Part shown: positions 5,353 through 53,875 of the stretch, piece after piece
Layout of the letters: each line of letters opens with the position of its first letter
Numbering within the stretch: position 1 is the first letter of the stretch
Source of the DNA: a candidate division WWE3 bacterium
Lineage (GTDB): Bacteria > Patescibacteriota > 4484-211 > GCA-002791395
DNA length: 64,000 nt
Assembly: GCA_013335095.1 (NCBI GenBank)
Contig: JAAXWF010000002.1
Location: 269,566 to 333,565 of the forward strand
Reading direction: 5' to 3'
Notes under the pieces: generated by a model
What the model saw: only the letters and a program-made list of their open reading frames with translations
The model's database searches: none
What the model was told of the DNA's origin: nothing
Program-made: the position numbers and the translations under genes

Positions 5353-5381
5353 TACAAACGCAGCACCTCTTTAATAAAACC

Positions 5382-5399
5382 CATAATATAGTATAATAA
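5382..5399 (+). promoter_or_regulatory. Putative promoter, conserved 17-nt module ATAATATAGTATAATAA (copy 1)
   Basis: An identical 17-mer recurs at 7635..7651, upstream of the third paralog. It contains TATAAT about 40 nt before the AAAGGAG RBS and the ATG. Confidence 0.4.
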
Positions 5400-5438: not shown

Positions 5439-6212
5439 ATGGACGACACCACTCGGTCGGACGATCAGGGTTTTGATCGTGAAGGGTACATCGCAGAAGC
5501 TCGACAGGAGATCGAGCCTGCGATTGAAAAAATCCGCCAACTGACAATCAATTGGCAACAGTATTATCCAGGCGATGGCAACATGGTACTGATCATGGAT
5601 CGGGTACCTGGTATTGCTGAAGGATTTGGTTTGGACTTTATGAGCGCCCTTGCGATCTCGCCCATACCCCAAACCCCCGAGGAATCGGATTTCTTCACCC
5701 GCCTCGAAACGATGTTCACACCTGGGCAATATGTCCCGATCGTACTTATCCATAAAGGCAAGTACGTCGTCACATTCGTGGTACGGCCAAATCATCCAAC
5801 CGACAAGGTCGTGACGTGTGAGGGGTACAAAGTACCCGACTTCGATTGTCCGCCAGATACAGCAGAGATTGCTGATGACCTGGCGTTTATCAGGGAACAC
5901 TGGCTTGAGGTTATTAGAGCCTTGCCAGAATTTGCGGCTTCAGCTGGTGAGGGAATGATGACCCTCATCAAGTACCTGAAGACTGGTCAACGGGGCATCT
6001 ACTACACTACCACGGCAGCTGCGATGGAAGTGCTGACGACATACCCAACTGCGCGTCAGGTATTCCAAGAGCAGGTCACCCGGGTTGACCCAACTCGGTA
6101 CATCCCGCTAATGGTTGTTAGCGATATCCCCGGCGGACCGGTACTGTTCTACGGTCTCATTGTTCCCCAGGCTGGGGAAGCGCCTACAGTTGAACAAATC
6201 GACGCTGGCTAG
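5439..6212 (+). CDS. Hypothetical protein, paralog A of a triplicated GC-rich family (two repeated sub-domains)
   Basis: A 257-aa ORF with an AAAGGAG RBS. It shares YVPIVLI..FVVRP and YIPLMVV..PVLFYGL motifs with the ORFs at 6778 and 7686. It is acidic and has no TM segment or signal peptide. Confidence 0.75.
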   Translation: MDDTTRSDDQGFDREGYIAEARQEIEPAIEKIRQLTINWQQYYPGDGNMVLIMDRVPGIAEGFGLDFMSALAISPIPQTPEESDFFTRLETMFTPGQYVPIVLIHKGKYVVTFVVRPNHPTDKVVTCEGYKVPDFDCPPDTAEIADDLAFIREHWLEVIRALPEFAASAGEGMMTLIKYLKTGQRGIYYTTTAAAMEVLTTYPTARQVFQEQVTRVDPTRYIPLMVVSDIPGGPVLFYGLIVPQAGEAPTVEQIDAG

Positions 6213-6777: not shown

Positions 6778-7551
6778 ATGGACGATCAGGTATCGGATCG
6801 ACAGGAGCTAATAGCTCACACGTTGCGTTTCCTTTCCGAATCACTTACCGAGGTTGCAGCAGTAAGTCTTGCTCATATCGGACTAATCGGCTCACCCTAC
6901 CTACTTACGGTAAGTGGTCGAACCGATGGATCCACATGTCAATGTGAGATTCGGATGATAGGCGGTCGAGATCTGGCATTGTTTCAATCAGATCTCGAAG
7001 GTATTGATCTAATCCAACTATCGAAACGTCATATTCCGGGATGGTATATCCCAGTCATTGTCGAAGATGCAGGACGAGCGCTGGCCGCTGTTATAGTACG
7101 GCCGCATAACCAAGAGTTTCCGGTGGTACTAAGCAGCTCGGATAAACTCATCGACGGATACGAAGCCCCACTAGTCAGTACCACCCTCGAGGAGATGGTT
7201 ACTCCAGCAGATGAACTGTTCTTAATAACGCAGTTCGAAACGCTGGTTAGTCGATATCCGGCCTGTCTGGATCAATTCGGGTTAGGTATGTTTTGCCTCG
7301 CTCGAAGTAGTGCCACGGGGCGCACGGTGTTGGTTTTCTTCGCGCTGCAGACCATCATCGATGGATTAATCAGTGGAGGACATTACCACGCTCTAAAAGT
7401 TATCGGAACGCTCATACCCCAAACCGCTCACGGTATGTACTACCCAGTCATGGTAGTAACCGACGCACCTAACAGTCCGGTCGGTTTTGTCGGGTTAACA
7501 AAGGGCGTACAAGGAGTACAGGCAGCGCAGATCGCCTATAATTCGTTATAA
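6778..7551 (+). CDS. Hypothetical protein, paralog B of the triplicated family
   Basis: A 257-aa ORF with the same length class, two-domain layout and shared motifs: WYIPVIVED..AAVIVRP and YYPVMVVTDAPNSPVGFVGL. Confidence 0.7.
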   Translation: MDDQVSDRQELIAHTLRFLSESLTEVAAVSLAHIGLIGSPYLLTVSGRTDGSTCQCEIRMIGGRDLALFQSDLEGIDLIQLSKRHIPGWYIPVIVEDAGRALAAVIVRPHNQEFPVVLSSSDKLIDGYEAPLVSTTLEEMVTPADELFLITQFETLVSRYPACLDQFGLGMFCLARSSATGRTVLVFFALQTIIDGLISGGHYHALKVIGTLIPQTAHGMYYPVMVVTDAPNSPVGFVGLTKGVQGVQAAQIAYNSL

Positions 7552-7582: not shown

Positions 7583-7634
7583 ATAATCTATAGACACTCA
7601 ATGGTTGCGCAAATTCCATCATGGCAAAAAACCT

Positions 7635-7651
7635 ATAATATAGTATAATAA
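7635..7651 (+). promoter_or_regulatory. Putative promoter, conserved 17-nt module ATAATATAGTATAATAA (copy 2)
   Basis: Identical to 5383..5399. It is followed by an AAAGGAG RBS and the TTG start of paralog C. Confidence 0.4.
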
Positions 7652-7685: not shown

Positions 7686-8471
7686 TTGGACAGCACAACC
7701 ACGTCTAATAAGCCCTTTTCGCGGGACAGCTATCTGGCCCAGGTAGTCGAATTCATCCGCGGCAATCGGGTTTATGTGATTGACTCGAGCCTCGAATACG
7801 GCAGCATCACTTCAGTCAGGCCGCAAATCCTGATCATTATGGATGAATGCGGTGAGCTAGACCAGATCGGGCTCTACCAAACTGGTAGCATGGCCCTCGA
7901 TGGTTACGGCAAAACGCCCGAAGAAAAAGATTTCATCCGGGCGATGGCCGAGAAAACCAATCCAGGGGTGTATATCCCGATCGTGGTTTTCTTCGACCTT
8001 GAACTGGTGGCAATGCTGGTCTTCCGGCCCCTCGCGGCCGAAGATAATCAGCTTGTCGAGGTTATAGACTGGACCAATCCTCCGGTAGATGATCTATCAG
8101 CCTACCTGGCCGAAGTGGACGACGACCTAACGGTATTCCGCGATACATTTTGCGGCATTCGTCCGGTGATGGACAGATACCGAACCGGCTATGGTCCGGG
8201 GGTGTTTTCATATATGTGTGGTAGCGATGCCTCGATGCTCGCTTACCATCTAAAGGATCATCTCATCAGGATGCTCGCCCTACTGGCGGTAGAAAATCCC
8301 GAAGAGCAGGGATCAGCGATCACGAATGCGGCCAGTGATGGCACGTATGTCATCATGGTCGTCCCGATGCAGGCGCAAAGGCCGATCGTGTTTTATACGA
8401 TCAAAAGCACGCCCGAGGGTGCGGTGACGCAGCATCTGCCCATCCGGGCGATCCCGGTCATCAGCGCATAA
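7686..8471 (+). CDS. Hypothetical protein, paralog C of the triplicated family (TTG start)
   Basis: A 261-aa ORF with a TTG start and an AAAGGAG RBS. Its upstream region is paralogous to that of paralog A. Shared motifs are YIPIVVFFD..AMLVFRP and YVIMVVPMQAQRPIVFYTI. Confidence 0.7.
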   Translation: MDSTTTSNKPFSRDSYLAQVVEFIRGNRVYVIDSSLEYGSITSVRPQILIIMDECGELDQIGLYQTGSMALDGYGKTPEEKDFIRAMAEKTNPGVYIPIVVFFDLELVAMLVFRPLAAEDNQLVEVIDWTNPPVDDLSAYLAEVDDDLTVFRDTFCGIRPVMDRYRTGYGPGVFSYMCGSDASMLAYHLKDHLIRMLALLAVENPEEQGSAITNAASDGTYVIMVVPMQAQRPIVFYTIKSTPEGAVTQHLPIRAIPVISA

Positions 8472-10274: not shown

Positions 10275-10313
10275 GCCTATAGCTATTGCCTTTTTTATAT
10301 AACGTATTAAAAT
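10275..10313 (+). promoter_or_regulatory. Degenerate copy of the cccatagcRtttgact promoter module
   Basis: cctatagctattgcct-ttttttatata..tattaa parallels 22298..22340. It lies upstream of the small ORF at 10346. Confidence 0.25.
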
Positions 10314-10345
10314 ATCAGAATATCCTTATGTGAGGAGGTGTTATC

Positions 10346-10675
10346 GTGTCTCTACACCCGGAAACGCCCGAAGGTTCGGCGGTACTCGCTCTTCGAATAC
10401 GGTACGAATCTCGCCGAGGGACCTGGCGGGATCTGTCAAGACCGATCACCCTTGGGGAATTGGCCATTGTCCCAGTTTCATGGTTTCTCATGATTTTGGG
10501 CGGTGCTCAACTCTTAACGGTTTGGGGTGAATTAAGCTTTCTATTATTTCCATCGTACGTGGAATTATGGATTGCTTCATTAAGCCTGCTCATTGTTGTC
10601 GGAATTCCGGCAGCGACACTAGCGCATATCGTGGTAAGACTTTTTGCCCGATTCGGTGGAAAAGAACTCTTTTAG
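10346..10675 (+). CDS. Hypothetical small membrane protein (GTG start)
   Basis: A 109-aa ORF with an AGGAGGTG RBS and two or three hydrophobic helices. The alternative frame 10330..10530 was judged less likely. Confidence 0.4.
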   Translation: MSLHPETPEGSAVLALRIRYESRRGTWRDLSRPITLGELAIVPVSWFLMILGGAQLLTVWGELSFLLFPSYVELWIASLSLLIVVGIPAATLAHIVVRLFARFGGKELF

Positions 10676-10695
10676 ACAAACCAAGATACATAATA

Positions 10696-10730
10696 AAGCG
10701 TATGGTCACTCAAAATGTGACTATACGCTT
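10696..10730 (+). terminator. Hairpin terminator
   Basis: The inverted repeat is AAGCGTAT-g-GTCAC (loop tcaaaat) GTGAC-t-ATACGCTT. Confidence 0.45.
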
Positions 10731-10789
10731 ACAATAATTCATCAATTGTTATTGGACGTAATTAAATATGAGTACTATTATATTTACAG

Positions 10790-12634
10790 ATGAATTTAAA
10801 TAAACCCGCGCCACCAATAGCATGGATCAGCGTAGTGTTCGCGAGTACAACGGTGGCATTGTTTTTATCTATTGCAACGCTAACCAATCCAACCCTTCCT
10901 CAATTTGGTCAAATAAATAAACCTTCACAATCTCAAGCAGCAACAACAATTACCGTTTCAGTCGATCCAAATCAGACTATTGCTCAATTTAAACCGGGCA
11001 TGCGCGGAATTGATTTCGTAAACTGGGAGCACAGCTGGGGAAGTAAGCCCTTTGTAAATGAAGTACCTGGATTAGTTCAAGCCATCAAAGAAATTAACCC
11101 AGGCTTACTTCGATATGCAGGCGGATTATGGGCAAATAGTGTGGGATTTGAACGATCAGCTCAAAAGCGCCCATATACCGAATGGACGCATAACGGCATG
11201 ACGTATTATTTTCACTACGGTACGGACGAATTAGACAGCCTTGCCAAATTTGCTAAAGCAGTAAATGCCGACACGATGATTCAAGTTAATGTATCAAACA
11301 ATGACCCTTCAATGTGGGCAGATATGGTTAAGTACACTAATAGCGAAAAAGGATACGGCTTTAAATATTGGGAGCTCGGAAATGAATTAGACTTAAACGA
11401 AGACACAAACATCTCACCAACCGTCTATGCACAAAGATTTGCCGCTTATTACAAAGCGATGATCGCAATGGATTCATCGATAAAATTACGCGGCCCAGCG
11501 GTAGCCTTTGCGATACAACAAGATGACTCAAACAGCATTATTAGCCCGAACCTTAGTAGTCTTCCTAAACTTATCAAAGATAACGGCGGACAGATGGAGG
11601 GAATGACCTGGCATTGGTATCAGGGATGTAATCTTGGTTCATACACCGATCCATTACTCTGGACATGGGATTCAACTGTTCCTGATAATTCTTGGCGTAA
11701 TGCGTATGTCCGAAAATGGTCGACACTCATGCCTTCGCGTTTGGACCGAGAAGTACTAACACCAGCCGGTGGAATGAACCAAGGTGTAACTGAATTAAAT
11801 GTCGATGCATGTAATTATGACAACCCGATGAATGGTAATCATATTGGGGCGTTGTGGTTAGCCGATGTACTCGGAAGGTTAGCAGCAAATGGTACAGATT
11901 TTGTGACTATGTATGATGCGTATGGGGTGCAAGCCTACTCACTCCTATATCCAGATGCAGGTGATTTCCCAAGTCGCATCGATGCCCGACCTACTTACTA
12001 CACGTATATCATGTACGCTCGCTATTTTGGAGACCAAATGGTTCGGACAACAACAAGTAACGAAAGTACATTATCGGTATGGGCGAGCAAAAAAACATCA
12101 GAGCCAAATAAGTTATATGTGATGGGTGTAAATCTAAGTGGAGATACCGTAACTAGTCCGATGACGTTTACCACCTCAGTGAGCAATGGGAAATCATACA
12201 CCATGAAGAGTAATAACCCAACCAATATTTCTGATGCAAGTATGACCACGGGAGCGACGACCACGATTAATGGAATCAAAATTGATGCGATGGATGTAAC
12301 CAACAGCTTGGCTAAAATTCAACCGACCTCAGTATCTGCTACAGGAACCTCAATAAGTTATTCGTTCCCGGCATATTCGGTAACTTCGCTTGTTTTTGAT
12401 ATTGGAGGGAGTTCGACCAATCCGACTCCTACACCAACAACAAATCCATCTCAAACGGCTGATATCAATCAAGATGGTGTGGTTAACGTATTTGATCTAG
12501 GAATTCTGGCAGCTCGTTATGGCATGACGATTACCGCCTCATCAACAGCACTTGATCGACGTTGTGATATGAATCAGGATAATACAATAAACGTCTTTGA
12601 TCTTGGTATTTTAGTTGGCCAATACCGTTCATAA
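10790..12634 (+). CDS. Secreted clan GH-A glycoside hydrolase with a Thr/Pro linker and a C-terminal type I dockerin
   Basis: It has an N-terminal signal-anchor. LRYAGGLWAN and YWELGNELD motifs are typical of clan A (beta/alpha)8 hydrolases (GH5/30/39/79-like). A TNPTPTPTTNP linker follows. Two dockerin calcium-binding repeats are present: DINQDGVVNVFDLGILAARYG and DMNQDNTINVFDLGILVGQY. Confidence 0.6.
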   Translation: MNLNKPAPPIAWISVVFASTTVALFLSIATLTNPTLPQFGQINKPSQSQAATTITVSVDPNQTIAQFKPGMRGIDFVNWEHSWGSKPFVNEVPGLVQAIKEINPGLLRYAGGLWANSVGFERSAQKRPYTEWTHNGMTYYFHYGTDELDSLAKFAKAVNADTMIQVNVSNNDPSMWADMVKYTNSEKGYGFKYWELGNELDLNEDTNISPTVYAQRFAAYYKAMIAMDSSIKLRGPAVAFAIQQDDSNSIISPNLSSLPKLIKDNGGQMEGMTWHWYQGCNLGSYTDPLLWTWDSTVPDNSWRNAYVRKWSTLMPSRLDREVLTPAGGMNQGVTELNVDACNYDNPMNGNHIGALWLADVLGRLAANGTDFVTMYDAYGVQAYSLLYPDAGDFPSRIDARPTYYTYIMYARYFGDQMVRTTTSNESTLSVWASKKTSEPNKLYVMGVNLSGDTVTSPMTFTTSVSNGKSYTMKSNNPTNISDASMTTGATTTINGIKIDAMDVTNSLAKIQPTSVSATGTSISYSFPAYSVTSLVFDIGGSSTNPTPTPTTNPSQTADINQDGVVNVFDLGILAARYGMTITASSTALDRRCDMNQDNTINVFDLGILVGQYRS

Positions 12635-12672
12635 CCCATAGCATTTGACTTTCATATTTTCTACGATACAAT
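12633..12672 (+). promoter_or_regulatory. Promoter module aacccatagcatttgact (-35 TTGACT, 16 nt, -10 TACAAT), copy 1
   Basis: Near-identical modules occur at 13172 and 22297. It abuts the stop codon of the upstream gene and precedes a GGAGG RBS and the ATG at 12720. Confidence 0.5.
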
Positions 12673-12719
12673 TACTATGCCAATATTGGTGATTCGGAAG
12701 CATCTACGGAGGTCATCCT

Positions 12720-13109
12720 ATGGATCAGCGCCAGAAGGTGCACGGCCCGTATCTAGGGGTCAGCATGATCGTCGTCAGCAACCAGCTGAATACAGCGGCG
12801 GTCACCAGGGTCAACTCAGATACGATTGATATCCTAGTCGCCGGAGCCACCCAGCACGTCTGGGTCGATACTTCGGGAACTGTGCTTTTTATCAATAAAG
12901 CATTCGTTCCCGAGGAACAGAGCCAGATCACGAGTACCGTGACTATTACCGACAACGCCGTCGTTACAATGGTGGCCGGGATAAACACCGGCACCATCGC
13001 CGCGAACTTCGACGGGGAGAGGATGACGGAAGCGCACATAACTGCCGCACCTCCGCCCTATACAATCACGATCCATTGCCCAGCGCATGTGATTGTGCGA
13101 TACGCATAG
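12720..13109 (+). CDS. Hypothetical protein (GC-rich)
   Basis: A 129-aa ORF with a GGAGG RBS and a dedicated consensus-like promoter. Overlapping antisense ORFs are attributed to high GC content. Confidence 0.45.
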   Translation: MDQRQKVHGPYLGVSMIVVSNQLNTAAVTRVNSDTIDILVAGATQHVWVDTSGTVLFINKAFVPEEQSQITSTVTITDNAVVTMVAGINTGTIAANFDGERMTEAHITAAPPPYTITIHCPAHVIVRYA

Positions 13110-13143
13110 TCTATAGTGACATGTCCTAGTCTCATTAATCACG

Positions 13144-13167
13144 ACGAGGTCCTTAATTGGACCTCGT
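13144..13167 (+). terminator. Hairpin (9-bp stem ACGAGGTCC / GGACCTCGT, 6-nt loop)
   Basis: A perfect inverted repeat lies 35 nt after the stop of 12720..13109. Its U-tract is weak. Confidence 0.4.
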
Positions 13168-13171
13168 TTAA

Positions 13172-13211
13172 TCCCATAGCATTTGACTAATCTAAATAAA
13201 TCCGGTATGAT
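13172..13211 (+). promoter_or_regulatory. Promoter module tcccatagcatttgact (-35 TTGACT, 17 nt, -10 TATGAT), copy 2
   Basis: The same 16-mer as at 12635 lies directly after the hairpin and precedes the ORF at 13359 with an AAGGAG RBS. Confidence 0.5.
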
Positions 13212-13358
13212 TGAAATCACAATTTAGCTTCTATTGGTTTATATAAACCAGTAGCGGTTGCATACATAAGACAGTCCAGTCTTGTGCCCACAAACGGAAG
13301 TTTGTTGACATAATACCGGGCTGTTTTTTTTGGCACCTACCACCTTAAGGAGATCGCT

Positions 13359-13784
13359 ATGCGAATCGTCACGTCATTTAGCCAGGTCGTTGCGTTAGTC
13401 GAAGAAGAAACGGCCATCGTTGCCGTGTGCTGGTTTTTCGACTCACAAGGGTTTGATCCGATCTTTGCTCTATGCACGGTCGAAGATGTTGCCCGCATCG
13501 ATCAAATAGCGTTGCTCAAATGGAATGATCAGATCATTCCGGCAGAGGATCTATTTGACCCGGAGCATCTCCATAGCGACTATTTCTTCGTCGGTCCAAA
13601 GCGGATCTTCGATAACCGGGAGTGGCTTGCCCCAATCGAAGAATTGCGCCACCGAGCGATAGCTATCGATCCTGTGTACGATGAAGCATATCGACGGCCA
13701 ATTAACTGGCGCCACCTTGATAACAGCCCTCCCAGCGGGTCAACCAACCTGGGAAACCCGGGCGGCACGACGTACTGCTACTAA
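13359..13784 (+). CDS. Hypothetical protein (GC-rich)
   Basis: A 141-aa ORF with an AAGGAG RBS. No family was recognised. Confidence 0.45.
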   Translation: MRIVTSFSQVVALVEEETAIVAVCWFFDSQGFDPIFALCTVEDVARIDQIALLKWNDQIIPAEDLFDPEHLHSDYFFVGPKRIFDNREWLAPIEELRHRAIAIDPVYDEAYRRPINWRHLDNSPPSGSTNLGNPGGTTYCY

Positions 13785-13811
13785 AGCGACGTCCATACCG
13801 TCATAACCCAA

Positions 13812-13846
13812 GCCTCGGTGTTTACTCATCGAGGCCTCATTTTTTC
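13812..13846 (+). terminator. Hairpin plus T-tract terminator
   Basis: The stem GCCTCG ... CGAGGC (overlapping a GAGGCCTC palindrome) is followed by TTTTTT. Confidence 0.45.
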
Positions 13847-13908
13847 GAGATAACTTCTAACAATACTTTTTAGTTATAAAACTTGGTATTATGTAAATAC
13901 ACACCCCT

Positions 13909-15159
13909 ATGAAAAAGATTCTCATTTGGCTGATAATAATTGCAGGTTTAATTGGTGGTGGGGTTTATTACTATATGAGTAGACCCAAGCCAGTTACGAC
14001 GTATGATTTTGGAACTGTAGAGCTTGGTTCGATTGTAAAAACGGTCAGTGAATCTGGTGAAGCATTCATCAGCGATCAGTATCCGATCAACGCGACGATA
14101 ACTGGCGTTATTGATGAATTATTCATTAAAAATGGAGATAGTGTAACTGCAGGTCAGAAATTACTTACTATAAAAAGTACCGCGACTGATGATGACCGTA
14201 AAGCCGCCGAGACAACCTTACTAAGCGCTCAATCAAATCTTAATTTAGCTGAACAAAATAAATATAATTACCAAATCCAACTCGAACAGGCTAAAAAAGA
14301 TTTACGCAATGCCGAAGAGGCGATCGTTCAAATGAATAATCACCTTGGAGATAATAAAATTAACCCGGCCACAGGAAAGCAATACACTCAGTTAGAGATC
14401 GATAACATTTATGCGACTCGGGATGTAGCAAAGTTGAATAAAACAACAGCAGAACAGCGATATAAAGATGCAGATCTTTCGATTAAAGCGGCGCAAGGTT
14501 CGGTTAGCAATGCAGAAACAAACCTAAACAAACTAAAGGCGGCAACGATAAACGCTCCAGTAGGAGGACAGATATCAAACCTTACAGTCGGACGGGGTGA
14601 CTATGTTTCGGCCACCACAACCGCTATTAGCGCAGTAGGCTCGGCATCCACCCCACTTTTATACATACTTCCCAGCACCGATATTTTAATCAAAGCCCAA
14701 TACAATGAAGTAGATGCGGCCCTAATAACACCTGGTCAAAATGCAACAATCACCGTAGACGCTCTTGCCAATGAAGAGTTTGCCGGACATGTTGATCGTA
14801 TCGACACAATTGGAACAAAAACGCAAGGAGTTGTTAGCTATACAGTATATTTAAAGTTGAATGCTGAGGATAAGCGTATCCGTCCGAGTATGACTACAGT
14901 TGTAGAAATTGAGGTTGCGCGTAAAGATCAAGCGTTAACGGTGGCAACGTCTGCGGTTAGACCATATCAAAATGGTTTGGCTCTAATGCAACTGCAAGAA
15001 GATGGAACAATTACATACTTACCGATAAAAACCGGTATTACGGATGGGAGTAAAACCGAAATAATATCAGGAGTAACCCAAGGTACAAAAATTATTACAA
15101 AGGTCAACGAGCCAGAGACTAATGGAGGTGGTTTGATTGCCCGACCATCGACAAATTAA
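13909..15159 (+). CDS. Periplasmic adaptor / membrane-fusion protein (HlyD/MacA/YknX-like)
   Basis: An N-terminal TM anchor precedes a long coiled-coil segment and a beta-barrel C-terminal region. It is the first gene of an operon with the MacB-type ATPase and FtsX-type permease. Confidence 0.7.
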
Positions 15160-15853
15160 CCAGCCTTTAATCCAACTGAAGAATATCCATAAAAGTTATG
15201 ATATTGGTGAAGAAGAATTCAAAGCGTTAAAAGGCGTCGATTTAACGATTGAGAAAGGGGAGTTTGTCGCAATTATGGGACCATCCGGCAGCGGTAAATC
15301 GACCTTAATGCATATCATGGGAGCGCTAGATACGCCTTCAGAAGGAACGTACACCCTTAACGGAAAATCGATCGAGAGTCTAAAAGACGATGAATTAGCC
15401 GAGATTAGGAATAGACAAATAGGCTTTGTCTTTCAGTCGTTTAACTTATTGCCTCGGACATCTGTATATAAAAATGTCGAACGACCAATGATGTACGGTA
15501 ATATTCCGTCAAAGGAACGTCAAGAAAGAGTGATGAAAGCACTTTCATTAGTCGGACTTAATCAAAAAACACAAAATCTGTCGAACCAATTATCAGGTGG
15601 CCAAATCCAGCGAGTCGCCATTGCCCGGGCATTAGTTATGAATCCACCAATACTGCTTGCCGACGAACCGACAGGTAATTTAGATAGTAAAACATCTCAT
15701 GAAGTTATGAAATTTTTTCAGACGCTCAATAATCAAGGAAATACGATAATCGTAATAACTCATGAAGAAGACATTGCTCGCTTTACCAAACGTGTCGTAC
15801 GAATAAAAGACGGACTTATTGTCTCGGACGAAAGAATTAACCAAATATTATGA
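15137..15853 (+). CDS. ABC transporter ATP-binding protein (MacB/LolD/YknY-like)
   Basis: Walker [10 protein letters not shown], signature [15 protein letters not shown], Walker [12 protein letters not shown] and the H-loop ITHE are all present. Confidence 0.9.
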
Positions 15854-17064
15854 TCTTTATTGAAATATTTACTACCGCAATCCAGGCACTTCGCGGAAAC
15901 CTACTCCGGACATTACTAACTATGCTCGGCATTGTTATTGGTATAACATCGGTAATTCTCATTGTTTCACTGGGACAAGGAGCCACAGCGTCAATCACGA
16001 GTCAGATATCCTCTCTTGGGGTAAACCAAATCTATGTAGCACCAGGTTCACCAAATGATGATGCCTTTGAATCTACCGGAAATATGGATTCACTTTCTCT
16101 GGATGATACAAATCGATTATCTGAAGAATTAAGTGGAATTGATGCAGTATCGGCTTCAGTAAGTACTCGTTTATTAATTACAGCTAATGGTCAAAAAGTA
16201 AATGCTTCAGTTTTTGGTATCCAACCGGACTATCTTACCGTACAAACTCTGAGTATGAATCAAGGAATATTTATTGACGATAAAGACATCAATTCTCAAG
16301 GTCGTGTTGTTGTTCTGGGTCCAACGATTCGGGACAAATTATTTGGTGAAGGAGCTGATGTTGTCGGAACCCTTGTTCGTATAGATAATAAGCCGTTTCG
16401 AATTATTGGAGTCACCGAGCCTAAAGGTGGAAGCGCATTTTCAAACCCCGATGAATATGTGTATATCCCGATAACTACTGCAATGAAACAAGTTATAGGG
16501 ATAGATTATGTTCAAAGTATCGTTATCATAGCAACGGATCCGAATAACGTTGAATCAATTCAGGCAGATATAAAACAGATTTTACGAAGCGCTCACGGGA
16601 TAGCCGAAGGCCAACCGGCAGATTTCCAGATGTTTTCATCAAAGCAAGCACTTTCGACGGTTAATAATGTCACCGGCCTTCTTTCAACATTTCTGTCAGC
16701 AATAGCAGGGATATCACTTGTCGTTGGAGGGATTGGAATCATGAATATAATGCTTGTAACAGTGACCGAAAGAACCAGGGAAATAGGGTTGCTAAAGGCG
16801 ATTGGTGCTAAAAGACGTGATATTTTAACGCAATTCATTGCTGAGGCACTTGTATTAACGTTTTTAGGTGGAGTTATAGGTATTGTCTGCGGATATGGTT
16901 TGACCTTTATAGTTGCATCACTTATCAACATCCCATTAGTTATGAAGTTAAGTACAATTGGACTTGCTTTAGGGGTTGCAGCCGGAGTTGGATTACTCTT
17001 TGGTTATTATCCTGCGCAAAAAGCGGCTAAGCTAAATCCAATAGATGCACTAAGGTTTGAATAA
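15850..17064 (+). CDS. ABC transporter permease, FtsX/MacB family
   Basis: Four TM helices and a large extracytoplasmic domain fit the family. It overlaps the ATPase gene through an ATGA junction. Confidence 0.85.
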
Positions 17065-17087
17065 CTATTCCTAATTTGACTATAGAT

Positions 17088-17551
17088 TTATGTGTCGACT
17101 TTTGTACTTAAAAAAATCTTGCGTACGATTTCATTTTCACTGGACGAATTAACATACCCGTGAATAAGTAACTTATTTGATAATTGGACAGCTGAATTTT
17201 GAGGATCCGTTTCTAGAAAAAATGCAGTATAACCCGGATATCTAGCCGGACGAATAAGCGTACTTTGATATGAGTCAACCCTGATCGATTCTGTTTCCGA
17301 ATCTATAACGTCTGAGGGCAATGCCGAATAGGGACCAAAGTCATACATCAATCTAAAATCATTACAGTTAATTACGCCGACGTTCGAGTCAACTCCTTGG
17401 AGGAACTAGTTATTACAATGATCAGGCAACTCAACAGAGAATCCATCAAGTGATACGCGTCTCCAAGATGACCCCGAAGGTGTCACAGTGCGATTAGTAG
17501 TATCATCTAATATTGCGGACAGTTGTAACCGAATCGGGGGATCAGTTACCT
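17088..17551 (-). pseudogene. Possible gene remnant: reading frame interrupted by two in-frame TAG codons
   Basis: An 87-aa minus-strand ORF (17088..17351) continues upstream in the same frame through TAG at 17408 and a second TAG at 17552, with no ATG. The 676 bp between the convergent genes has no intact ORF. Confidence 0.25.
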
Positions 17552-17740
17552 AGTTATCTGGAATGGCAGAAATAGTGTCACGCATTTGCCAAAATGACCA
17601 CAGCCGAATGCTAGTACCAACGATTAAAAGTACAATTACGCTACCTTAGCTTATTGGTCAATTAATGAAACCCTTCTGAGCTGTTCCACAGCACTAATAG
17701 TAACAAAATCTGGATGATTATTTAAAAAAGTTCAAAACAA

Positions 17741-19270
17741 TTATTTAAATACCACAGCATTTTTCTCAAGCGTTTGTTCAAATCCTGTGGTATCAAGATC
17801 CTTCACCTGTTGGTATTGGTAATATTCCGAAATATTAAGAGTACGCCAATCGTATGAATCATATTTATCCTTCAAGTAATTGATTTTATTTAAGACTTCG
17901 GTCCCGGCATTAAGTAACGCAAATCTTCGAGCATCTGATAGATTGGATTGATTAAGCTCAGATCCAATTAAATTGATCAATTCATCATACGCATGAGCAT
18001 CGCTCGATAATTGGGCGAGATATTGATAATCAACGCCATCAGAAGTTGAGGCTTTATGGTAACGAAACATGATGTCATCAAAATTGACAATATTGATCGT
18101 AATCAAGACTCCTACCGAAAATACGATCATCGACTTAATCCATTGATAATGCGAGATACGGCGCCAAAATGCATAACCATAACTAGACAATACGACAAAG
18201 ATCCAAAATACAACGGCGTATCCCCATAAACGTTTATACGTGAATCCCCACATTTGGCTATAGTCGATAACACTCTTGAGTGCCATTATCGTTAAAAATA
18301 ACCCCTCAAGAACAAGAACATACGTAAGGATTTGGGATCGCGCTTTGTAGGATCGATCGTTATAAAGAAGCACAACGATAACTCCCGCAACAATTGAAAG
18401 TTGAGCAAAAACTTCACGGGCATACTGGGAATGAGTGTAGCCTAAGATCTGAAGAGTTTCTGATGTAGAAAAATATAGTTGAATCTGACTAGCGAAAAAT
18501 ATCAGTAGCAACAAACTTAATACCAGCTTAGGTAAAAATAACGGCCACGCTGGTTCCTTTTCAGCAGAGGGTTTGTCTAAAGGCACTAAGCTAGAAACCA
18601 TACTAACCATTCTTGGCAAGAATAGACTAAAAATTATAAAGCTAATAACTTGGACAATAAAAAGATCGCCAAGAATCGATTGAATCCACTCCACGAGTCT
18701 ATCTAAACTCAAAGCCGAAAGAACCGTCTCGACCCATTGATTAAAAAATGGATTGGCAGAGGCAAGTAGGGGAATGACCACGATAAGTACACCCAACGAA
18801 ACACATACCGAAATCACTAATTCTTTAATTTTAGATGCAGAAATGGTCAGAGATCCCAGTTTTATTTGACGAGAAAAGGTGACTAAGTTGGGCGATATTA
18901 TTGATCGAACGAGAAACAGGATTGGAGCTGCAATCAGTGTACGAATCGGCTGAAATAGTGCCGAGTCAAAATGATATAGAGAAAGCCATGCTCCAAAGAA
19001 TAACAACGTTACGATATCGAGAAATACTAATAATGGATTTGCCCGAGATACGATAAAAAAACTTAATATTAGTATTACCGCAAACATAAATGCATCAAAC
19101 GCCATTTTATTTTGCTTAATAACAAAAACCAAACTGGCAAGAATCGCTAAAGCACATGCGATACCATCGTACGGAAAATAATTTTCGACAAATAACAGAT
19201 ATGAAAATGTAGCTGATATTAGTATTAATATCCAACCAATTCCGTTTACTAACGTATTTCTCATAGTCAT
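17741..19270 (-). CDS. Hypothetical polytopic membrane protein (about 12 TM) with a C-terminal soluble domain
   Basis: A 509-aa ORF, highly hydrophobic, with a C-terminal domain of about 110 aa. No family was recognised. Confidence 0.6.
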   Translation of the reverse strand: MTMRNTLVNGIGWILILISATFSYLLFVENYFPYDGIACALAILASLVFVIKQNKMAFDAFMFAVILILSFFIVSRANPLLVFLDIVTLLFFGAWLSLYHFDSALFQPIRTLIAAPILFLVRSIISPNLVTFSRQIKLGSLTISASKIKELVISVCVSLGVLIVVIPLLASANPFFNQWVETVLSALSLDRLVEWIQSILGDLFIVQVISFIIFSLFLPRMVSMVSSLVPLDKPSAEKEPAWPLFLPKLVLSLLLLIFFASQIQLYFSTSETLQILGYTHSQYAREVFAQLSIVAGVIVVLLYNDRSYKARSQILTYVLVLEGLFLTIMALKSVIDYSQMWGFTYKRLWGYAVVFWIFVVLSSYGYAFWRRISHYQWIKSMIVFSVGVLITINIVNFDDIMFRYHKASTSDGVDYQYLAQLSSDAHAYDELINLIGSELNQSNLSDARRFALLNAGTEVLNKINYLKDKYDSYDWRTLNISEYYQYQQVKDLDTTGFEQTLEKNAVVFK

Positions 19271-19333
19271 TATTATACTATAGGAAGTATATTTTTATCT
19301 TGTTTTCTTAACTTTAAGAGAATGACAATACAT

Positions 19334-19349
19334 TGTGATCAAGATCACA
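19334..19349. promoter_or_regulatory. CRP/FNR-family-type palindrome TGTGA-N6-TCACA
   Basis: The sequence TGTGAtcaagaTCACA lies in the 281-bp divergent region between 17741..19270 (-) and 19552..21042 (+). Confidence 0.4.
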
Positions 19350-19416
19350 TTCTTACACGGAAAAACTCTCTATTATCACAATAGTTAGTTTTTCGCACCT
19401 TACATTCGCATTAGGG

Positions 19417-19450
19417 TGGACAGGTCTTCCCGCCTGTCCATTTCTTTATT
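19417..19450 (+). promoter_or_regulatory. Leader hairpin with U-rich tail upstream of 19552
   Basis: The stem TGGACAGG / CCTGTCCA (loop tcttcccg) is followed by TTTCTTTATT. It sits about 100 nt before the start codon. Confidence 0.3.
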
Positions 19451-19551
19451 ACTATCTGATATTCACATTTCTTTTCATTAACTTTATTTACCACCGTTAC
19501 CTTAATTTTTATTGAAACAATTGATTCTTAGGATTATTATTTGTATATACT

Positions 19552-21042
19552 ATGAAAGTTCAATCGCTTAAAATTGTTGCCATACTGTTATTCTTAGTAA
19601 TCGGTTGGGTATTTAGGCCTTTTATCCATCCGCTAATAATGAGTTTTGTTATTAGCCCGCTTCGTATATTACAAATTGCAATTATTATTTGGATGTTGTG
19701 GATTTTATTCTCCCGGACCTTATGGCCGAAGATAAAAGTTTCATCTCAAGGTTCAGTAAAAATTGATTGGCAAGATGGCACGTATAGGAAAGTCGGATTA
19801 ATAGTAGGGGTGCTCATACTCATAAGCTTAGGCCTAACATTAGAGTCAGATATAAGAGCCTCACTAACTGCGCATCAAATTACCTATGAAAAAAGAGAGC
19901 AATTGCCTGAATTCAACCCTTTGCGGTTAACCCCTAAGGGAGTGGCACAACGGTATGCCCAAGATTCGTTTCAAAACCCTCAAGAATACCTAGGCGATTC
20001 ACAAATAGTTTTAATTCATGACCAACTATATCGAGTATTTCCTCGTTTGCCAGATGGAGCACTGCTTTATTTTTTTAATAAACTGAGTGGATTTGTGACT
20101 GTTGAAGTAAGTACACTCGATCGCACGGTAAATATAGAAGATCAAACATTTAAATATGCTGAAGGCATTGGCATCTTTGATAACTTGTACTACCAATTAC
20201 CACTAAAGCGATTTTTTGTTACATATAGTAGCGAACCAATTTATTTGAAAAATGACACCAATAATTGGGTTACGATCGTTCCATACATTACGTATAAAGG
20301 ATTTCCATTCACAATACCGACATGGGGTGGGGTAATGGAAATAAAGCCCGATGGAACAATAAATGACTACACTCCAGAACAAGCGCAGGAGATTAGTTAT
20401 TTAAAGAATAACCGAATATATCCCAAAGAATTATCTGAATATTATGCGCAGTCCTTCGCCTATAAAAATGGAATATTAAACAAATGGTTCCTCCATAAGG
20501 ATGAAACCGAAGTAGTGAATCTACCATCAGATGAAATGGTTCTTCATGTACCGACCAAAGAAGGCTACAAACAAATGATTGTCGCCGAACCTTACGGTCG
20601 ATCATACGGAATTTATAAAATATTCTTCACTGACGCAACCACCGGCAAGCGCGAGATTATTGAATATGATTCTCAATCCCAATTAACAGGTCCAATTGCC
20701 GCAGCTGATTATGTAAAACGAAACTTTCCAACCTACGACTGGAGCAGTTTTAGCCTAGTCGAACCAAGACCTATTACCATTAATAATAGCCTTAATTGGA
20801 TGCTCTCTATTGTTCCTAATGATTGGGCTGGTATTGCTTCAACAGTATTTCTAGATACAAAAACAAATAATGTCCAAAAGGCTGATGATGAATCCCAGAT
20901 TGATCAGATCCGTCAAGGTGAAAAGAACATACCTAATGAGATAACACCAACACCAGGAAACACTCAAAATTCACAAATTAATCAAAAAATAAATGATATT
21001 CAGCAACAGTTAGATGAGCTGAAAAAACTCCTTAATCAATAG
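19552..21042 (+). CDS. Hypothetical membrane-anchored protein with a large extracytoplasmic domain and a C-terminal coiled coil
   Basis: A 496-aa ORF with N-terminal TM helices. The tail is Gln/Asn-rich: NSQINQKINDIQQQLDELKKLLNQ. Confidence 0.55.
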   Translation: MKVQSLKIVAILLFLVIGWVFRPFIHPLIMSFVISPLRILQIAIIIWMLWILFSRTLWPKIKVSSQGSVKIDWQDGTYRKVGLIVGVLILISLGLTLESDIRASLTAHQITYEKREQLPEFNPLRLTPKGVAQRYAQDSFQNPQEYLGDSQIVLIHDQLYRVFPRLPDGALLYFFNKLSGFVTVEVSTLDRTVNIEDQTFKYAEGIGIFDNLYYQLPLKRFFVTYSSEPIYLKNDTNNWVTIVPYITYKGFPFTIPTWGGVMEIKPDGTINDYTPEQAQEISYLKNNRIYPKELSEYYAQSFAYKNGILNKWFLHKDETEVVNLPSDEMVLHVPTKEGYKQMIVAEPYGRSYGIYKIFFTDATTGKREIIEYDSQSQLTGPIAAADYVKRNFPTYDWSSFSLVEPRPITINNSLNWMLSIVPNDWAGIASTVFLDTKTNNVQKADDESQIDQIRQGEKNIPNEITPTPGNTQNSQINQKINDIQQQLDELKKLLNQ

Positions 21043-21061
21043 AATATACGACATCATAAGC

Positions 21062-21089
21062 TTGACACATTCAATGAACCAGTTAGAAT
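21062..21089 (+). promoter_or_regulatory. Promoter TTGACA-16-TAGAAT
   Basis: It sits 13 nt upstream of the MFS start codon. Confidence 0.45.
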
Positions 21090-21101
21090 TACTGATGACT
21101 A

Positions 21102-22304
21102 ATGCGAAAACTCTTTGTCGGAAATCGAAATTTAGCGATTATTGCACTTATCGCAATAGTGAACGCCCTCGGATACGGTATTGTAATTCCGGTTCTATAC
21201 TCTTATTCAGTTAAATTTGGACTCACTGATTTTCAAAACGGTTTACTATTCGCGCTGTTTTCACTATGCCAATTTTTATCAACACCGATAATTGGACGAT
21301 TCTCGGATAAATTAGGACGTCGCCCTCTCCTTATTGCTTCTCTAGCCGGCACAACATTGTCTTTTTTCATCATGGCATTTGCACCAAGTGCAGCATTTTT
21401 ATTTATTGCCCGTGCGTTGGATGGATTAACTGCTGGTAATATTCCAGTAGCTTCAGCGGTAATTTCGGACACAACGACCGGAGCAGACCGTGCAAAGGGC
21501 TTTGGAATTATTGGAGCTTCGTTTAGTTTAGGGATGATCTTAGGTCCAGCAATATCGGCACTCTCGGTGGGAATATCTCCAGCATTACCTTTCATTATCG
21601 CTGGGGCGATATCAGCAATTTCGGTTGTTGTAACAGTACTATATTTACCTGAGACAAATACACATTCTAAAGAGATCCAACATGCAAAGATGTTTGATTT
21701 CTCACGTTTGTTTCACGCGCTCATCGATAAAAGAATTGGTTTAGTGTTGGTTTTATCACTCCTTAATGCATTCGGTTTTGCGATGCTAATTTATGCCTAC
21801 CAGCCATATGCGACCAAAATATTAAGCTTAAATAGTCAGCAGATCGCGCTGCTATTTGTCATGTTTGGCGTCTTAGGCATGCTTTCACAACTGTTTATTC
21901 TCAGTCAAATGATAAAACGATTTGGCATCGAAAGGTCATTGTCCTTCTCTTTAATCGGAATGAGCATAACGTTTTTGGCTATCCATCTATTCCACTCACT
22001 AGCGGTATTTATTGGAGCATCTATCGTCATGGGCCTGGTTAACGTTATCCAACCATTAATTCAGACAGTGCTTGCAAGAGACACTGATCAAAACTCCCAA
22101 GGATCACTTCAGGGATTAAACGCCTCGTATATGTCGATCGGCCAAATACTCGGGCCAATTATTGGAGGGACATTAGCAACTTTCGAGATTACCTACCCAT
22201 TTTTACTTGGTAGCATCATCTTTATAATTTGTTTCTTTATCTCTATTAAGGCAGTAAAACCGCTGCAAAAAATCGAACAAGCATTTGAAACGCAAAACCC
22301 ATAG
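21102..22304 (+). CDS. MFS transporter (drug:H+ antiporter-like, 12 TM)
   Basis: Motif A GRFSDKLGRRPLL lies between TM2 and TM3. The fold shows 12 TM helices over 400 aa. Confidence 0.85.
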   Translation: MRKLFVGNRNLAIIALIAIVNALGYGIVIPVLYSYSVKFGLTDFQNGLLFALFSLCQFLSTPIIGRFSDKLGRRPLLIASLAGTTLSFFIMAFAPSAAFLFIARALDGLTAGNIPVASAVISDTTTGADRAKGFGIIGASFSLGMILGPAISALSVGISPALPFIIAGAISAISVVVTVLYLPETNTHSKEIQHAKMFDFSRLFHALIDKRIGLVLVLSLLNAFGFAMLIYAYQPYATKILSLNSQQIALLFVMFGVLGMLSQLFILSQMIKRFGIERSLSFSLIGMSITFLAIHLFHSLAVFIGASIVMGLVNVIQPLIQTVLARDTDQNSQGSLQGLNASYMSIGQILGPIIGGTLATFEITYPFLLGSIIFIICFFISIKAVKPLQKIEQAFETQNP

Positions 22305-22336
22305 CGTTTGACTTTTATATATCTATTAAGTATAGT
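22297..22336 (+). promoter_or_regulatory. Promoter module aacccatagcgtttgact (-35 TTGACT, 17 nt, -10 TATAGT), copy 3
   Basis: Over about 30 nt, 27 match the copy at 12633. The stop codon of the MFS gene lies inside the motif. Confidence 0.55.
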
Positions 22337-22382: not shown

Positions 22383-23258
22383 ATGCGTACACCGAGGATC
22401 ATCTGGATTCTGCTTGCGGCACTGCTGCTCGCAGGTTGTGGCCAAACAACGAGCGGACAAACGATGAGCCTAGACGGGGAGAAGCCACCGTCAACTGCTG
22501 TGGTCGAAACTACAACGAGTGGCCCTGTCGCTAACACCGAACAGACGGACCTTGTTATAGCAACACCACCACCAGCAACGGTGGAGCCGCCTACAAACGA
22601 ACCGGTCCCGACAAGGACTGTGGATCCCACGGCAACACTAACACCCGTACCAACTGCGATTCCACAAGAGGTGGAGGGCTTCCAACTACCGCAAGAGATG
22701 AAAAACTGCGCTGCAGTAGCATCAGTGGATGGGCTCGAGAATGCAACCAGACGCAATTATGCCTGGATTGCATTCGATCAAGGCGGTAATGTCAGGCTGG
22801 TCACGGATTTGGTTACGTACGAAAAGGCAAAGTACGTACGATTAACCCGCGTCGCCGATAGTAAGGTCAACCTTTACAAATGTCGCTCAACGGCATGGGA
22901 AGATGACCTGGCTAAGGCGCTGTTTGAGATGGTGCCTACCGATTTTAATCGGTGGTGGGCAACAACCAGGAGCGTTGGGTTTGGCCAGGGCATTACACTA
23001 ATCGACACTGAAAAGATGACCCTGGTGATTAGTGGGCTGACCCAAGAGGGTGAAACATTGACCTTTAAATACAAGGTCAACGGCACTGAATCATCCATGC
23101 AGCAACCTGTTTCGTTTAACCCAGCAACCCCAATCAGCGTCGATGGAAGTGGTGGGAATACCTACCAAGTACTTCTCATCGAAATGAACGGGGAGAAAGG
23201 TGTGCGTTTGCTCATTCTATCAACAGAGCCAGCGCATATCAGTGGTGGTAGTAAATAA
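22383..23258 (+). CDS. Lipoprotein, hypothetical (GC-rich; Thr/Pro-rich linker)
   Basis: The ATG at 22383 follows an AGGAAGGA RBS. The signal peptide MRTPRIIWILLAALLLAGC carries the LAGC lipobox. The ORF track extends it to the TTG at 22308. Confidence 0.65.
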   Translation: MRTPRIIWILLAALLLAGCGQTTSGQTMSLDGEKPPSTAVVETTTSGPVANTEQTDLVIATPPPATVEPPTNEPVPTRTVDPTATLTPVPTAIPQEVEGFQLPQEMKNCAAVASVDGLENATRRNYAWIAFDQGGNVRLVTDLVTYEKAKYVRLTRVADSKVNLYKCRSTAWEDDLAKALFEMVPTDFNRWWATTRSVGFGQGITLIDTEKMTLVISGLTQEGETLTFKYKVNGTESSMQQPVSFNPATPISVDGSGGNTYQVLLIEMNGEKGVRLLILSTEPAHISGGSK

Positions 23259-23283
23259 ATAGCAAGTTCGTGTTTGCTCAACA

Positions 23284-23312
23284 AGCCGGGAAATAAAACT
23301 CCCGGCTTTTTT
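23284..23312 (+). terminator. Rho-independent terminator
   Basis: The stem AGCCGGGA / TCCCGGCT has an 8-nt loop and is followed by TTTTTT. Confidence 0.75.
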
Positions 23313-25898: not shown

Positions 25899-26756
25899 TT
25901 ACACCTTGCCAATGTTCACCGCTGGGGGAACACAGGCCGTCATAGTTTGCTCCTGGAGCACCACCGCAATGTTGTCGCGGAAGTACACCATCTGTACCAT
26001 CACCGCAACCGGCAAACACGTCTCATCACCTTTCAGTGATTTTGCCGGATCGGGGTAATGCTCTACGATCCCCGGTGTAGCCCAATTCCCGTAATCATTG
26101 GGATCCGTATCAGGCACAGGAACGAATTGGTCTTGGCGAACCTGATGCCAGACCCACCATCCGCTATTAGCTGGTGGGGTGGAAGGACTCCATTTAAACT
26201 CAAGCTGAACGTTCCCATCCTTATCCAGATTAGGTATCAAGGCAGGGGGGCTCATCTTAAGCTCGGCAAGACTCTTCACATCGACCCCGATATCAGCACC
26301 CGTTAAGGGTTTTAGCTGATCGATCGGCGTGAACGTCACTGGAACAGGATCGCTAAACGATCCTTCGGGCCGGCGCAGAACGGTCACCGACGCGGCAGTC
26401 GTATCATACCCGCCATCAAAGGCAAAGAACGCCTCGTTGGAACGAGATGCGGCGATACGCGTGGCCAAATCCTTGCCATCGCGCTGAAACGTCACATCGT
26501 ACCATTCTTGGTTTGGTGTGAGCGGACGCCCTTCCCATTTCACCATCAGGACCGGACGATTCTTTGCATCAAGACCGATCACCCGGGCTTCAGTGATTGT
26601 GATACCACCGATACCAGCCATATTAAGCAAGCGAGGCCCATAGATAACAGCAATGGTAGCGCCTGCGCCTAGCAAGAGCAGGATCAGACACGCGATCAGA
26701 ATCCAAGCGCCACGCGAGGTTTGATTCCGCGGTTGATCCAAGCCTGAAAGAGCCAT
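25899..26756 (-). CDS. Hypothetical membrane-anchored protein (GC-rich)
   Basis: A 285-aa ORF with an N-terminal TM helix and a Trp-rich C-terminal domain. It is co-oriented and probably co-transcribed with the M50 protease. Confidence 0.5.
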   Translation of the reverse strand: MALSGLDQPRNQTSRGAWILIACLILLLLGAGATIAVIYGPRLLNMAGIGGITITEARVIGLDAKNRPVLMVKWEGRPLTPNQEWYDVTFQRDGKDLATRIAASRSNEAFFAFDGGYDTTAASVTVLRRPEGSFSDPVPVTFTPIDQLKPLTGADIGVDVKSLAELKMSPPALIPNLDKDGNVQLEFKWSPSTPPANSGWWVWHQVRQDQFVPVPDTDPNDYGNWATPGIVEHYPDPAKSLKGDETCLPVAVMVQMVYFRDNIAVVLQEQTMTACVPPAVNIGKV

Positions 26757-26768
26757 AATCGGGCCTCC

Positions 26769-52377: not shown

Positions 52378-52408
52378 AATTTTTATTGATACCTACAATT
52401 TGAGAGTA

Positions 52409-53873: not shown

Positions 53874-53875
53874 AT

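Follow-up and report, generated by a model that had tools for sequence, protein, structure and literature searches.

A recurrent promoter-like module upstream of GC-rich orphan genes in a candidate division WWE3 bacterium

How do genes that have no protein similarity to one another come to be preceded by the same 16 nucleotides? The question is raised by a 64,000-nucleotide stretch of DNA (hereafter the window) from a candidate division WWE3 bacterium, a member of the candidate phyla radiation (CPR). The window covers positions 269,566 to 333,565 of the forward strand of contig JAAXWF010000002.1 (358,632 bp; assembly GCA_013335095.1), and the motif counts given for this genome refer to it. The repeat, a 10-nt box (CCCATAGCRT) directly followed by TTGACT, forms with a spacer and a -10 hexamer what is here called the module. 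The reading favoured here, to which slightly more than even credence is given, is that the module would be a strong promoter, conserved in the lineage and extended by a box on its upstream side, that heads accessory units resembling the morons of phages. A conserved promoter module of 19-28 nt with a specific box would provide a testable handle on gene expression in the CPR, for which the only mapped transcription starts cited are those of one Saccharibacterium. For this CPR lineage it would be the first concrete signature of promoters and accessory units, and it would point to a pool of GC-rich orphan genes.

The module and the genes behind it

The 16-mer CCCATAGCRTTTGACT occurs three times without mismatch in the window (12635-12650, 13173-13188 and 22298-22313, all on the + strand), and no exact copy was found in 100 dinucleotide-preserving shuffles. 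The module is therefore exact and non-random, and the recurrence, 16-17 nt spacer and -10 hexamer reported in a preliminary description of this DNA are borne out. The first copy (12631..12672, +) comprises an A-rich lead-in, the box CCCATAGCAT (12635-12644), the -35 element TTGACT (12645-12650), a 16-nt spacer and the -10 element TACAAT (12667-12672). In the second copy (13169..13211, +) the box is followed by TTGACT (13183-13188), a 17-nt spacer and TATGAT (13206-13211), and in the third (22294..22336, +) the box CCCATAGCGT is followed by TTGACT (22308-22313), a 17-nt spacer and TATAGT (22331-22336). Each of the three matches the sigma-70/sigma-A type consensus at 10/12 positions. A diverged copy (10276..10313, +) consists of CCTATAGCTATTGCCT, 16 nt and TAAAAT.

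When the copies are aligned, similarity begins sharply at the A-rich lead-in and the CCC, is perfect through TTGACT and then decays. The box, also written CCCATAGC (the module in pattern form is AAYCCCATAGCRT), is non-palindromic, has a GC content of 50-60% and is A-rich only in the 2-4 nt that precede it. Its orientation and its position directly upstream of the -35 element are fixed in at least 11 copies. The agreement of 27 of about 30 positions previously given for the copies at 12633 and 22297 is too high, as the ungapped count (12633 vs 22296) is 24/30 and a 1-nt gap has to be allowed to arrive at about 27. It had also been stated that every copy touches the stop codon of the upstream gene. 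This holds for the copy that adjoins the TAA stop (12632-12634) of a dockerin glycoside hydrolase gene and for copy 3, where the TAG stop (22302-22304) of a major facilitator superfamily (MFS) gene falls within the box, but not for the copy at 13173, which lies 64 nt 3' of the stop of the preceding open reading frame (ORF), behind a hairpin. That hairpin (13144..13167, +), described earlier as a perfect 9-bp hairpin just before copy 2, was confirmed; its stem is formed by ACGAGGTCC and GGACCTCGT around a 6-nt loop, TTAATT, and it is terminator-like with a weak T-run.

Behind each exact copy, on the same strand, lies an ORF that is GC-rich and has a strong Shine-Dalgarno (SD) site, as the preliminary description had it (GC 0.52-0.55, GGAG-type SD in 3/3); the ORFs start 48, 148 and 47 nt past the -10 of copies 1, 2 and 3, respectively. 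The first, HGA91_04105 (12720..13109, +; 129 aa), has a GC content of 0.55, a GC content at third codon positions (GC3) of 0.68 and the SD GGAGG. The second, HGA91_04110 (13359..13784, +; 141 aa), has a GC of 0.52, a GC3 of 0.58 and the SD AAGGAG. The third, HGA91_04145 (22383..23258, +; 291 aa), encodes a lipoprotein with the lipobox LLAGC and has a GC of 0.52 and a GC3 of 0.51. In the neighbouring genes GC is ~0.40 and GC3 ~0.33. Neither HGA91_04105 nor HGA91_04110 gave a match in Pfam, PHROG, PADLOC or phage genomes, and each forms a singleton cluster; the sole match of the lipoprotein among 5.8 billion proteins was itself. As judged from these searches, the cargo genes are shown to be unrelated orphans. 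Since the three have no mutual protein similarity, the repeat is not a by-product of gene duplication, and the family check that had been proposed for the downstream ORFs, in finding them unrelated, was counted toward the idea of a cassette. The presence of SD sites and, in one case, of a lipobox indicates that the ORFs are protein-coding. The alternative that they are RNA genes was ruled out, as Rfam at the gathering threshold gave only a tRNA-Val across the window, and the matches with E below 1 in 12500-13900 were no more than noise.

The two-unit insert that follows copy 1 is closed by an intrinsic terminator (13812..13835, +) with a 9-bp stem and a T-run, which is probably the original terminator of the hydrolase gene. 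Between copy 2 and its ORF lies a structured 5' leader of 147 nt (13212..13358, +) with two hairpins (minimum free energy -42.3 kcal/mol, z = -3.4). The second hairpin is followed by U8, resembling an attenuator or terminator inside the 5' untranslated region, and no Rfam family was matched by the leader. The lipoprotein unit ends in an intrinsic terminator (23283..23308, +) identified by sequence scan. The diverged copy stands upstream of a GC-rich ORF for a membrane protein of 109 aa (10346-10675, +) with a sub-threshold PspC-like Pfam match.

These genes belong to a distinct class. The window is ~40% GC overall and contains ~11 ORFs of 0.47-0.55 GC, which occupy ~a tenth of it. GC at the first, second and third codon positions is 0.58/0.42/0.55 in the GC-rich ORFs vs 0.49/0.37/0.35 in the resident genes, and a GGAG or GAGG SD is present in 9/10 GC-rich ORFs vs 3/50 resident genes (p = 1.4e-7). 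The resident AT-rich genes mostly lack an SD (for example those starting at 423, 1921, 3571, 10790, 13909, 19552 and 21102). Most of the GC-rich ORFs come with a promoter-like site of their own and are followed by a GC-rich hairpin terminator. No PHROG or PADLOC match was found for the GC-rich ORFs, and apart from the PspC-like similarity mentioned above the only Pfam match was that of 26769-27485 (Peptidase_M50). For the five GC-rich genes that were searched, homologues were absent or distant (30-34% identity or less); the searches covered 5.8 billion proteins for two genes and 1.84 billion cluster representatives for a family of paralogues described below.

The association of the box with this class was assessed on 10 GC-rich unit heads that lie outside the motif definition and on 37 native upstream regions. 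CCCATAG, with one mismatch allowed, was found in 7/10 unit heads vs 2/37 native regions (p = 6e-5), and in an unbiased 7-mer comparison it ranked second, behind the SD motif. The stricter CCYATAG was present in 4/10 unit heads by our own tally, vs 1/50 native upstream regions in the window.

Conservation of the module in other genomes

One genome per GTDB species and the JGI metagenomes were scanned with the motif plus a -10 element as the query. Most matches are due to chance and lie inside coding sequence of unrelated taxa; viral contigs gave chance matches only, all 11 of them inside unrelated sequence. Five matches have the same context as the window copies, namely L002 and L008 (two contigs of one metagenome-assembled genome), L007, L011 and L013. 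All five, which represent at least four genomes besides that of the window, carry the 19-mer CCCATAGCATTTGACTTTT in AT-rich intergenic DNA, with the -10, often extended (TGn), at 17 nt. Behind the module the GC content rises from 0.42 to 0.58 in L002, from 0.39 to 0.61 in L008, from 0.42 to 0.52 in L011 and by 0.08 in L013; there is no rise in L007. A jump of at least 0.10 is thus seen in 5/8 copies (two of the three in the window, L002, L008 and L011), no jump being counted for the copy at 13173 because the first GC-rich ORF sits upstream of it. Among the chance matches in other taxa a jump was found in 3/29 (L024, L032 and L037). L013 is syntenic with 43-45 kb of the window at ~50% protein identity and is therefore regarded as a distant relative. 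In L013 the -10 of the motif lies 7 nt ahead of an ATG, and the transcript is probably leaderless.

L002 and L008 are more alike than either is to the window. Outside the searched 16-mer they are identical at 20/28 positions, vs 7-14/28 for the comparison with the window copies. The pair has two common blocks, of 31 and 42 nt, with an unconserved spacer between them. The second block, TTGACAATTGTCTKCAATTGCGAAATGCGTC (L002 2563-2593 and L008 1339-1369), is 30/31 identical, lies ~95 nt upstream of the box and includes a perfect 10-bp palindrome, GACAATTGTC. Neither the window nor the viral contigs contain this block.

Two loci allow the conservation of the module to be compared with that of the DNA around it. 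In L025, a contig from another metagenome, three units stand head to tail. Each opens with AAYCCCATAR immediately behind the stop or hairpin that precedes it and is equipped with an SD and a hairpin terminator. The second ORF of L025 has 28% protein identity to the window ORF 10346-10675. Upstream of this homologue CCCATAG-TATTGTCT, a T-run and TACAAT are matched in register by CCTATAGCTATTGCCT, a T-run and TAAAAT in the window, so that CCYATAG-TATTGYCT, the T-run and the -10 are common to both. Since neutral DNA is saturated at 28% protein identity, the upstream match is counted as purifying selection. The L025 copy (CCCATAGTATTGTCT, 17 nt, TACAAT) is at the same position as the window copy at 10276, and because the homologue keeps the module, this weak copy, noted earlier at 10275, is validated.

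The second locus is that of L007, where the gene upstream of the module encodes an EamA permease. Relatives of this gene with at least 90% identity were found on 12 contigs and fall into six haplotypes. Across the six, ACCCCATAGCATTTGACTTTTAGCCTCA (28 nt, box through spacer) is invariant, as is TGnTAWTAT, while the haplotypes vary between the stop and the box (including a 16-nt indel) and at third codon positions. These substitution patterns show the module to be under purifying selection at two independent loci.

Junctions, cargo exchange and the readings weighed

Three comparisons bear on how the units came to stand where they do. For the lipoprotein unit, the homologues of the upstream MFS protein nearly all end in ...K(K/E)ESAF, while the window protein reads ...KIEQAF and continues with ETQNP to the TAG in the box. 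The ETQNP extension indicates that the native MFS stop was overwritten within 18 nt of the box. The closest MFS homologues, ~60% identical, are from Roizmanbacteria and other Patescibacteria; in the empty-site test they proved not to be syntenic and to be without the motif or GC islands, and only the C-terminal comparison was usable for this insertion. A duplication of AACAAGC at the lipoprotein unit was rejected, as it would remove the conserved terminal AF.

At the hydrolase gene, the 10-nt direct repeat TCATAACCCA is present at 12629..12638 (+), where it covers the last sense codon of the gene, its stop and the first 4 nt of the box, and at 13801..13810 (+), immediately before the terminator 13812-13835. 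The pair flanks the two-unit block 12639-13800 (p ~0.004 by shuffling), and an empty, pre-insertion site would read, for example, ...TCATAACCCAAGCCTCGG...

In the third comparison, between L007 and the L041-type genomes (L007 7170-7920 vs L041 4950-5990), the EamA genes are 94% identical in protein and ~85% in DNA. DNA identity drops to 35-45% right after the -10 and recovers before rpmE. The L041-type has an extra ORF of 135 aa, and the next ORF encodes a small membrane protein whose identity, over 69 residues, is only 35%. On this alignment a variable slot is bordered on its 5' side by the module as a conserved island, since cargo has been replaced behind a fixed module with conserved flanks. 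Taken together, the three comparisons show the module as the 5' edge of inserted or replaced DNA.

No machinery dedicated to such events was found. The ORFs scanned against Pfam (423-45941) include no recombinase, transposase, integrase or phage gene, and the annotation of an overlapping Logan contig (~52-63 kb), which extends one side by 4.6 kb, includes no recombinase. The units have no conserved 3' motif beyond T-runs and no terminal inverted repeats, and no DNA-binding protein is encoded next to any module copy. A phage origin was rejected, as there were no PHROG or PADLOC matches and tblastn of two small ORFs against phage genomes was empty; a plasmid collection was not searched. No paper was found in the literature with the motif string, nor one linking WWE3, promoters and GC content. 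At ~52400-59400 (-) the window encodes a type IV pilus or type II secretion-like cluster with a prepilin peptidase, pilins, a PilC-like protein and two PilB/PilT-like ATPases.

In the favoured reading, the module would act as a near-consensus sigma-70/sigma-A type promoter (-35 TTGACT, 16-17 nt spacer, TAnnnT -10), from which RNA polymerase would start ~7 nt after the -10. The upstream box, consisting of the A-rich lead-in and CCCATAGCRT, would then lie at about -45 to -36, where it might be read by the transcription machinery (sigma region 4, the alpha subunit's C-terminal domain (alpha-CTD) or another factor) and would add to strong, insulated expression. A unit would comprise this promoter, a strong SD, one or few orphan ORFs and a hairpin terminator, and the units of the WWE3 genome would be GC-rich, foreign-looking inserts between AT-rich resident genes. 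They would arrive or be exchanged by ordinary recombination, with no dedicated recombinase; they could be anchored by homology to the ~45-nt module, or be joined at microhomology. In homology-facilitated illegitimate recombination, as it occurs in transformable bacteria, a short common sequence anchors one side and microhomology is used at the other. Such a process would explain the conserved 5' module, the variable cargo and the 10-nt repeat; it is one that we infer for these units, and the type IV pilus cluster is not proof of it.

The units may be likened to several known systems. Phage morons, as described by Hendrix and colleagues, are said to be autonomous units of a promoter, an ORF and a factor-independent terminator, of distinct composition and with diverse or unknown cargo. 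The units resemble them in having their own promoter and terminator, in being inserted between resident genes and in a composition unlike that of their neighbours. They differ in that they sit in a CPR chromosome, with housekeeping and transport genes as neighbours and no phage genes nearby, and in that many of them have one exact promoter box in common. They are also GC-richer than the host, whereas most foreign DNA is AT-richer. In lying at about -45 to -36, with the -35 directly downstream, and in being fixed in orientation, the box is comparable to an UP element or a contact site of sigma region 4. UP elements are alternating A- and T-tracts at -40 to -60 that are bound by alpha-CTD (PMC12641261), whereas the box is a specific, invariant mixed sequence, CCCATAGCRT.

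Several points weigh against the favoured reading. The box is not A/T-rich as an UP element is, and no factor that recognises a sequence of this kind is known; both the start sites and the function given to the box are ones that we infer. The motif scan covers 64 kb of the 358-kb contig. The exact 16-mer was the search query, so that cross-genome identity within those 16 nt is by construction and what counts as independent evidence is confined to the two footprints, the context, the -10 and the flanking TTT. Not all cargo is GC-rich (0.43 GC in L013, 0.39 in the L041-type). Around the other units, flanking direct repeats do not reach significance and are not consistently placed with respect to the box. 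The taxonomic assignment of L002, L007 and L008 is uncertain, the records CAYHXX01 and CAYTOI01 being labelled Gammaproteobacteria and Pseudomonadales; these labels may be doubtful, as the AT-rich, compact gene content and the module resemble the CPR window.

The fixed position of the box could also mean that a dedicated transcription factor uses it as an operator or activator site and that the units are co-regulated, for example as accessory or host-interaction genes. This is a serious possibility, although a doubtful one. It would account for the box being held at one place upstream of the -35 in at least 11 copies and for the third unit of L025, which retains the box at 32 nt from the -10 but has a degenerate -35 (AGATTT); the palindromic second block of L002 and L008, GACAATTGTC, with the unconserved spacer after it, likewise has the look of separate binding sites. 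By contrast, the box is short and lacks symmetry, an activator is not needed where the -35 and -10 stand so near consensus, and no gene for a DNA-binding protein adjoins any copy. The position-weight scan of all loci is bimodal: exact copies score above 30 bits and the range from 14 to 30 bits is empty, an unusual pattern for a regulon. No dedicated regulator of the kind suggested in the preliminary description was found, and the scan gave only exact copies, with no graded weaker sites. That the repeats are due to chance, or to convergence on a consensus promoter, is extremely improbable. TTGACT-N17-TAnnnT is indeed the consensus promoter, and some of the database matches are clearly chance occurrences in coding sequence. 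However, none of the 100 shuffles had an exact copy, the 10 nt upstream of the -35 are outside any consensus, and the box is conserved across deep divergence.

Other explanations concern how the module spread. The same description had proposed a cassette boundary, and this stands in so far as unrelated ORFs, terminators, the MFS stop, the direct repeat and the replacement of cargo agree with it; the lack of a recombinase, of a conserved 3' site and of terminal repeats does not. A stronger version, in which a dedicated mobile system would carry the units as its cassettes, with the box or an AACCCA core as an att-like site and the 3' hairpin as the other boundary, is by analogy with known cassettes conceivable, and we consider it unlikely. 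Its merits are that the module touches the upstream stop at 12632 and 22302 in the window and at 334 in L025, that arrays are head to tail with junctions of a hairpin followed by AAYCCCATAG (the three units of L025; 12635/13173 in the window), that TCATAACCCA includes the first 4 nt of the box, that the order of neighbours of homologous units differs between genomes and that cargo is swapped behind a fixed module. The absence of a recombinase from 423-45941 and from the ~52-63 kb annotation, of any conserved 3' sequence beyond T-runs and of terminal inverted repeats argues against it, as do the non-significant repeats at the other units. The hairpins, at 24-30 nt, are far shorter than attC sites, and conservation through the spacer and the -10 fits a promoter, not an att core. 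Integron cassettes are similar in their head-to-tail arrays, single-ORF units, 3' hairpins and variable cargo at a fixed site, but the units have no integrase, attI or attC-like core, and each brings a promoter with it, which integron cassettes usually do not. Insertion sequences and miniature inverted-repeat transposable elements with an outward promoter differ in that the units have no flanking inverted repeats and a significant direct repeat at one unit pair only. It is also possible, in the opposite sense, that the promoter alone was copied before existing genes and that the GC-rich ORFs were acquired separately. Putative mobile promoters of 50-100 nt at 80% identity or more have been described before non-homologous coding sequences, within and across genomes (Matus-Garcia et al. 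2012, PMC3488235). The module is like these in being a similar sequence upstream of non-homologous ORFs, and copies within a genome are closer (L002/L008, 20/28) than those between genomes (7-14/28). The conserved block is only ~20-45 nt, however, which is below the published range, and it lies at the edge of inserted or replaced cargo, coinciding with the composition and SD boundary of the units and with the insertion scars. As the module meets both the unit boundary and the scars, promoter and cargo are suggested to have arrived together, and we regard separate propagation of the promoter as very unlikely.

A broader and more speculative extension, which is rather improbable, is a gene-cassette economy, not described before, in CPR bacteria of the WWE3/Microgenomates type. 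In this, insulated units of promoter, SD, orphan ORF and terminator, drawn from a GC-rich source, would be stacked head to tail at AAYCCCATAGC slots and exchanged between genomes, the box being both a promoter element and a recombination anchor or site. If the module does anchor the exchange of cargo, it would give an account of how ultra-small genomes renew their accessory genes. The module also flags a class of GC-rich genes with SD sites and terminators, and so raises the matter of their origin and of how they retain their GC content in an AT-rich genome. As a candidate strong promoter, it may be of use in genetic tools for the CPR.

Other GC-rich genes of the window

A second shared module precedes some of the GC-rich genes. 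The string AAAACCCATAATATAGTATAATAA (5376..5399, +) stands ahead of the GC-rich ORF 5439-6212, and its twin AAAACCTATAATATAGTATAATAA (7628..7651, +) ahead of ORF 7686-8471. These ORFs belong to a set of three GC-rich paralogues of 257-261 aa (5439-6212, 6778-7551 and 7686-8471), which are 21-24% identical. The second module, AAAACCYATAATATAGTATAATAA, is 23/24 identical ahead of two paralogues that are ~24% identical in protein, which shows that in this class of genes it is a general feature for promoters to stay conserved longer than the proteins behind them. The CCYATAAT-type string CCYATAATATAGTATAAT within it may be CC followed by a -10-like hexamer, and not the same as the box.

Only one further member of the paralogue family, that on L025, where it stands among the three head-to-tail units, was found among the 1.84 billion cluster representatives. 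The AlphaFold model of the four-member family, with a predicted local distance difference test (pLDDT) score of 60, suggests at low confidence a tandem helix-plus-sheet repeat; the pLDDT of the 129-aa ORF is 36. A Foldseek search of the modelled cargo against PDB gave no match below E = 0.04, and this route was uninformative on function.

At 25899-27485 (-) there is a GC-rich two-gene unit, which lies behind CCTATAGTTTGTCGTGTATAAT and has a terminator at its end. It encodes an M50-like membrane protease of 238 aa and a protein of 285 aa with a hydrophobic N-terminal stretch, read by eye, that is a possible membrane anchor. The nearest homologues of the M50-like ORF are 30-34% identical, and no donor lineage could be identified for it.

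A GC-richer orphan unit at 33422-33968 (ORF 33517-33954) has the promoter-like TTGTTT-N17-TATAAT, an SD and a terminator. It separates thrS from infC, two genes that are adjacent in many bacteria, and is followed by rplT and pheST; its placement was counted among the signs of insertion. On the opposite strand, CCTATAGTATAAT (19271-19290, -) is directly ahead of the ATG of a DUF4153 gene (17741-19270), and this arrangement suggests that its transcript is leaderless or has a very short leader.

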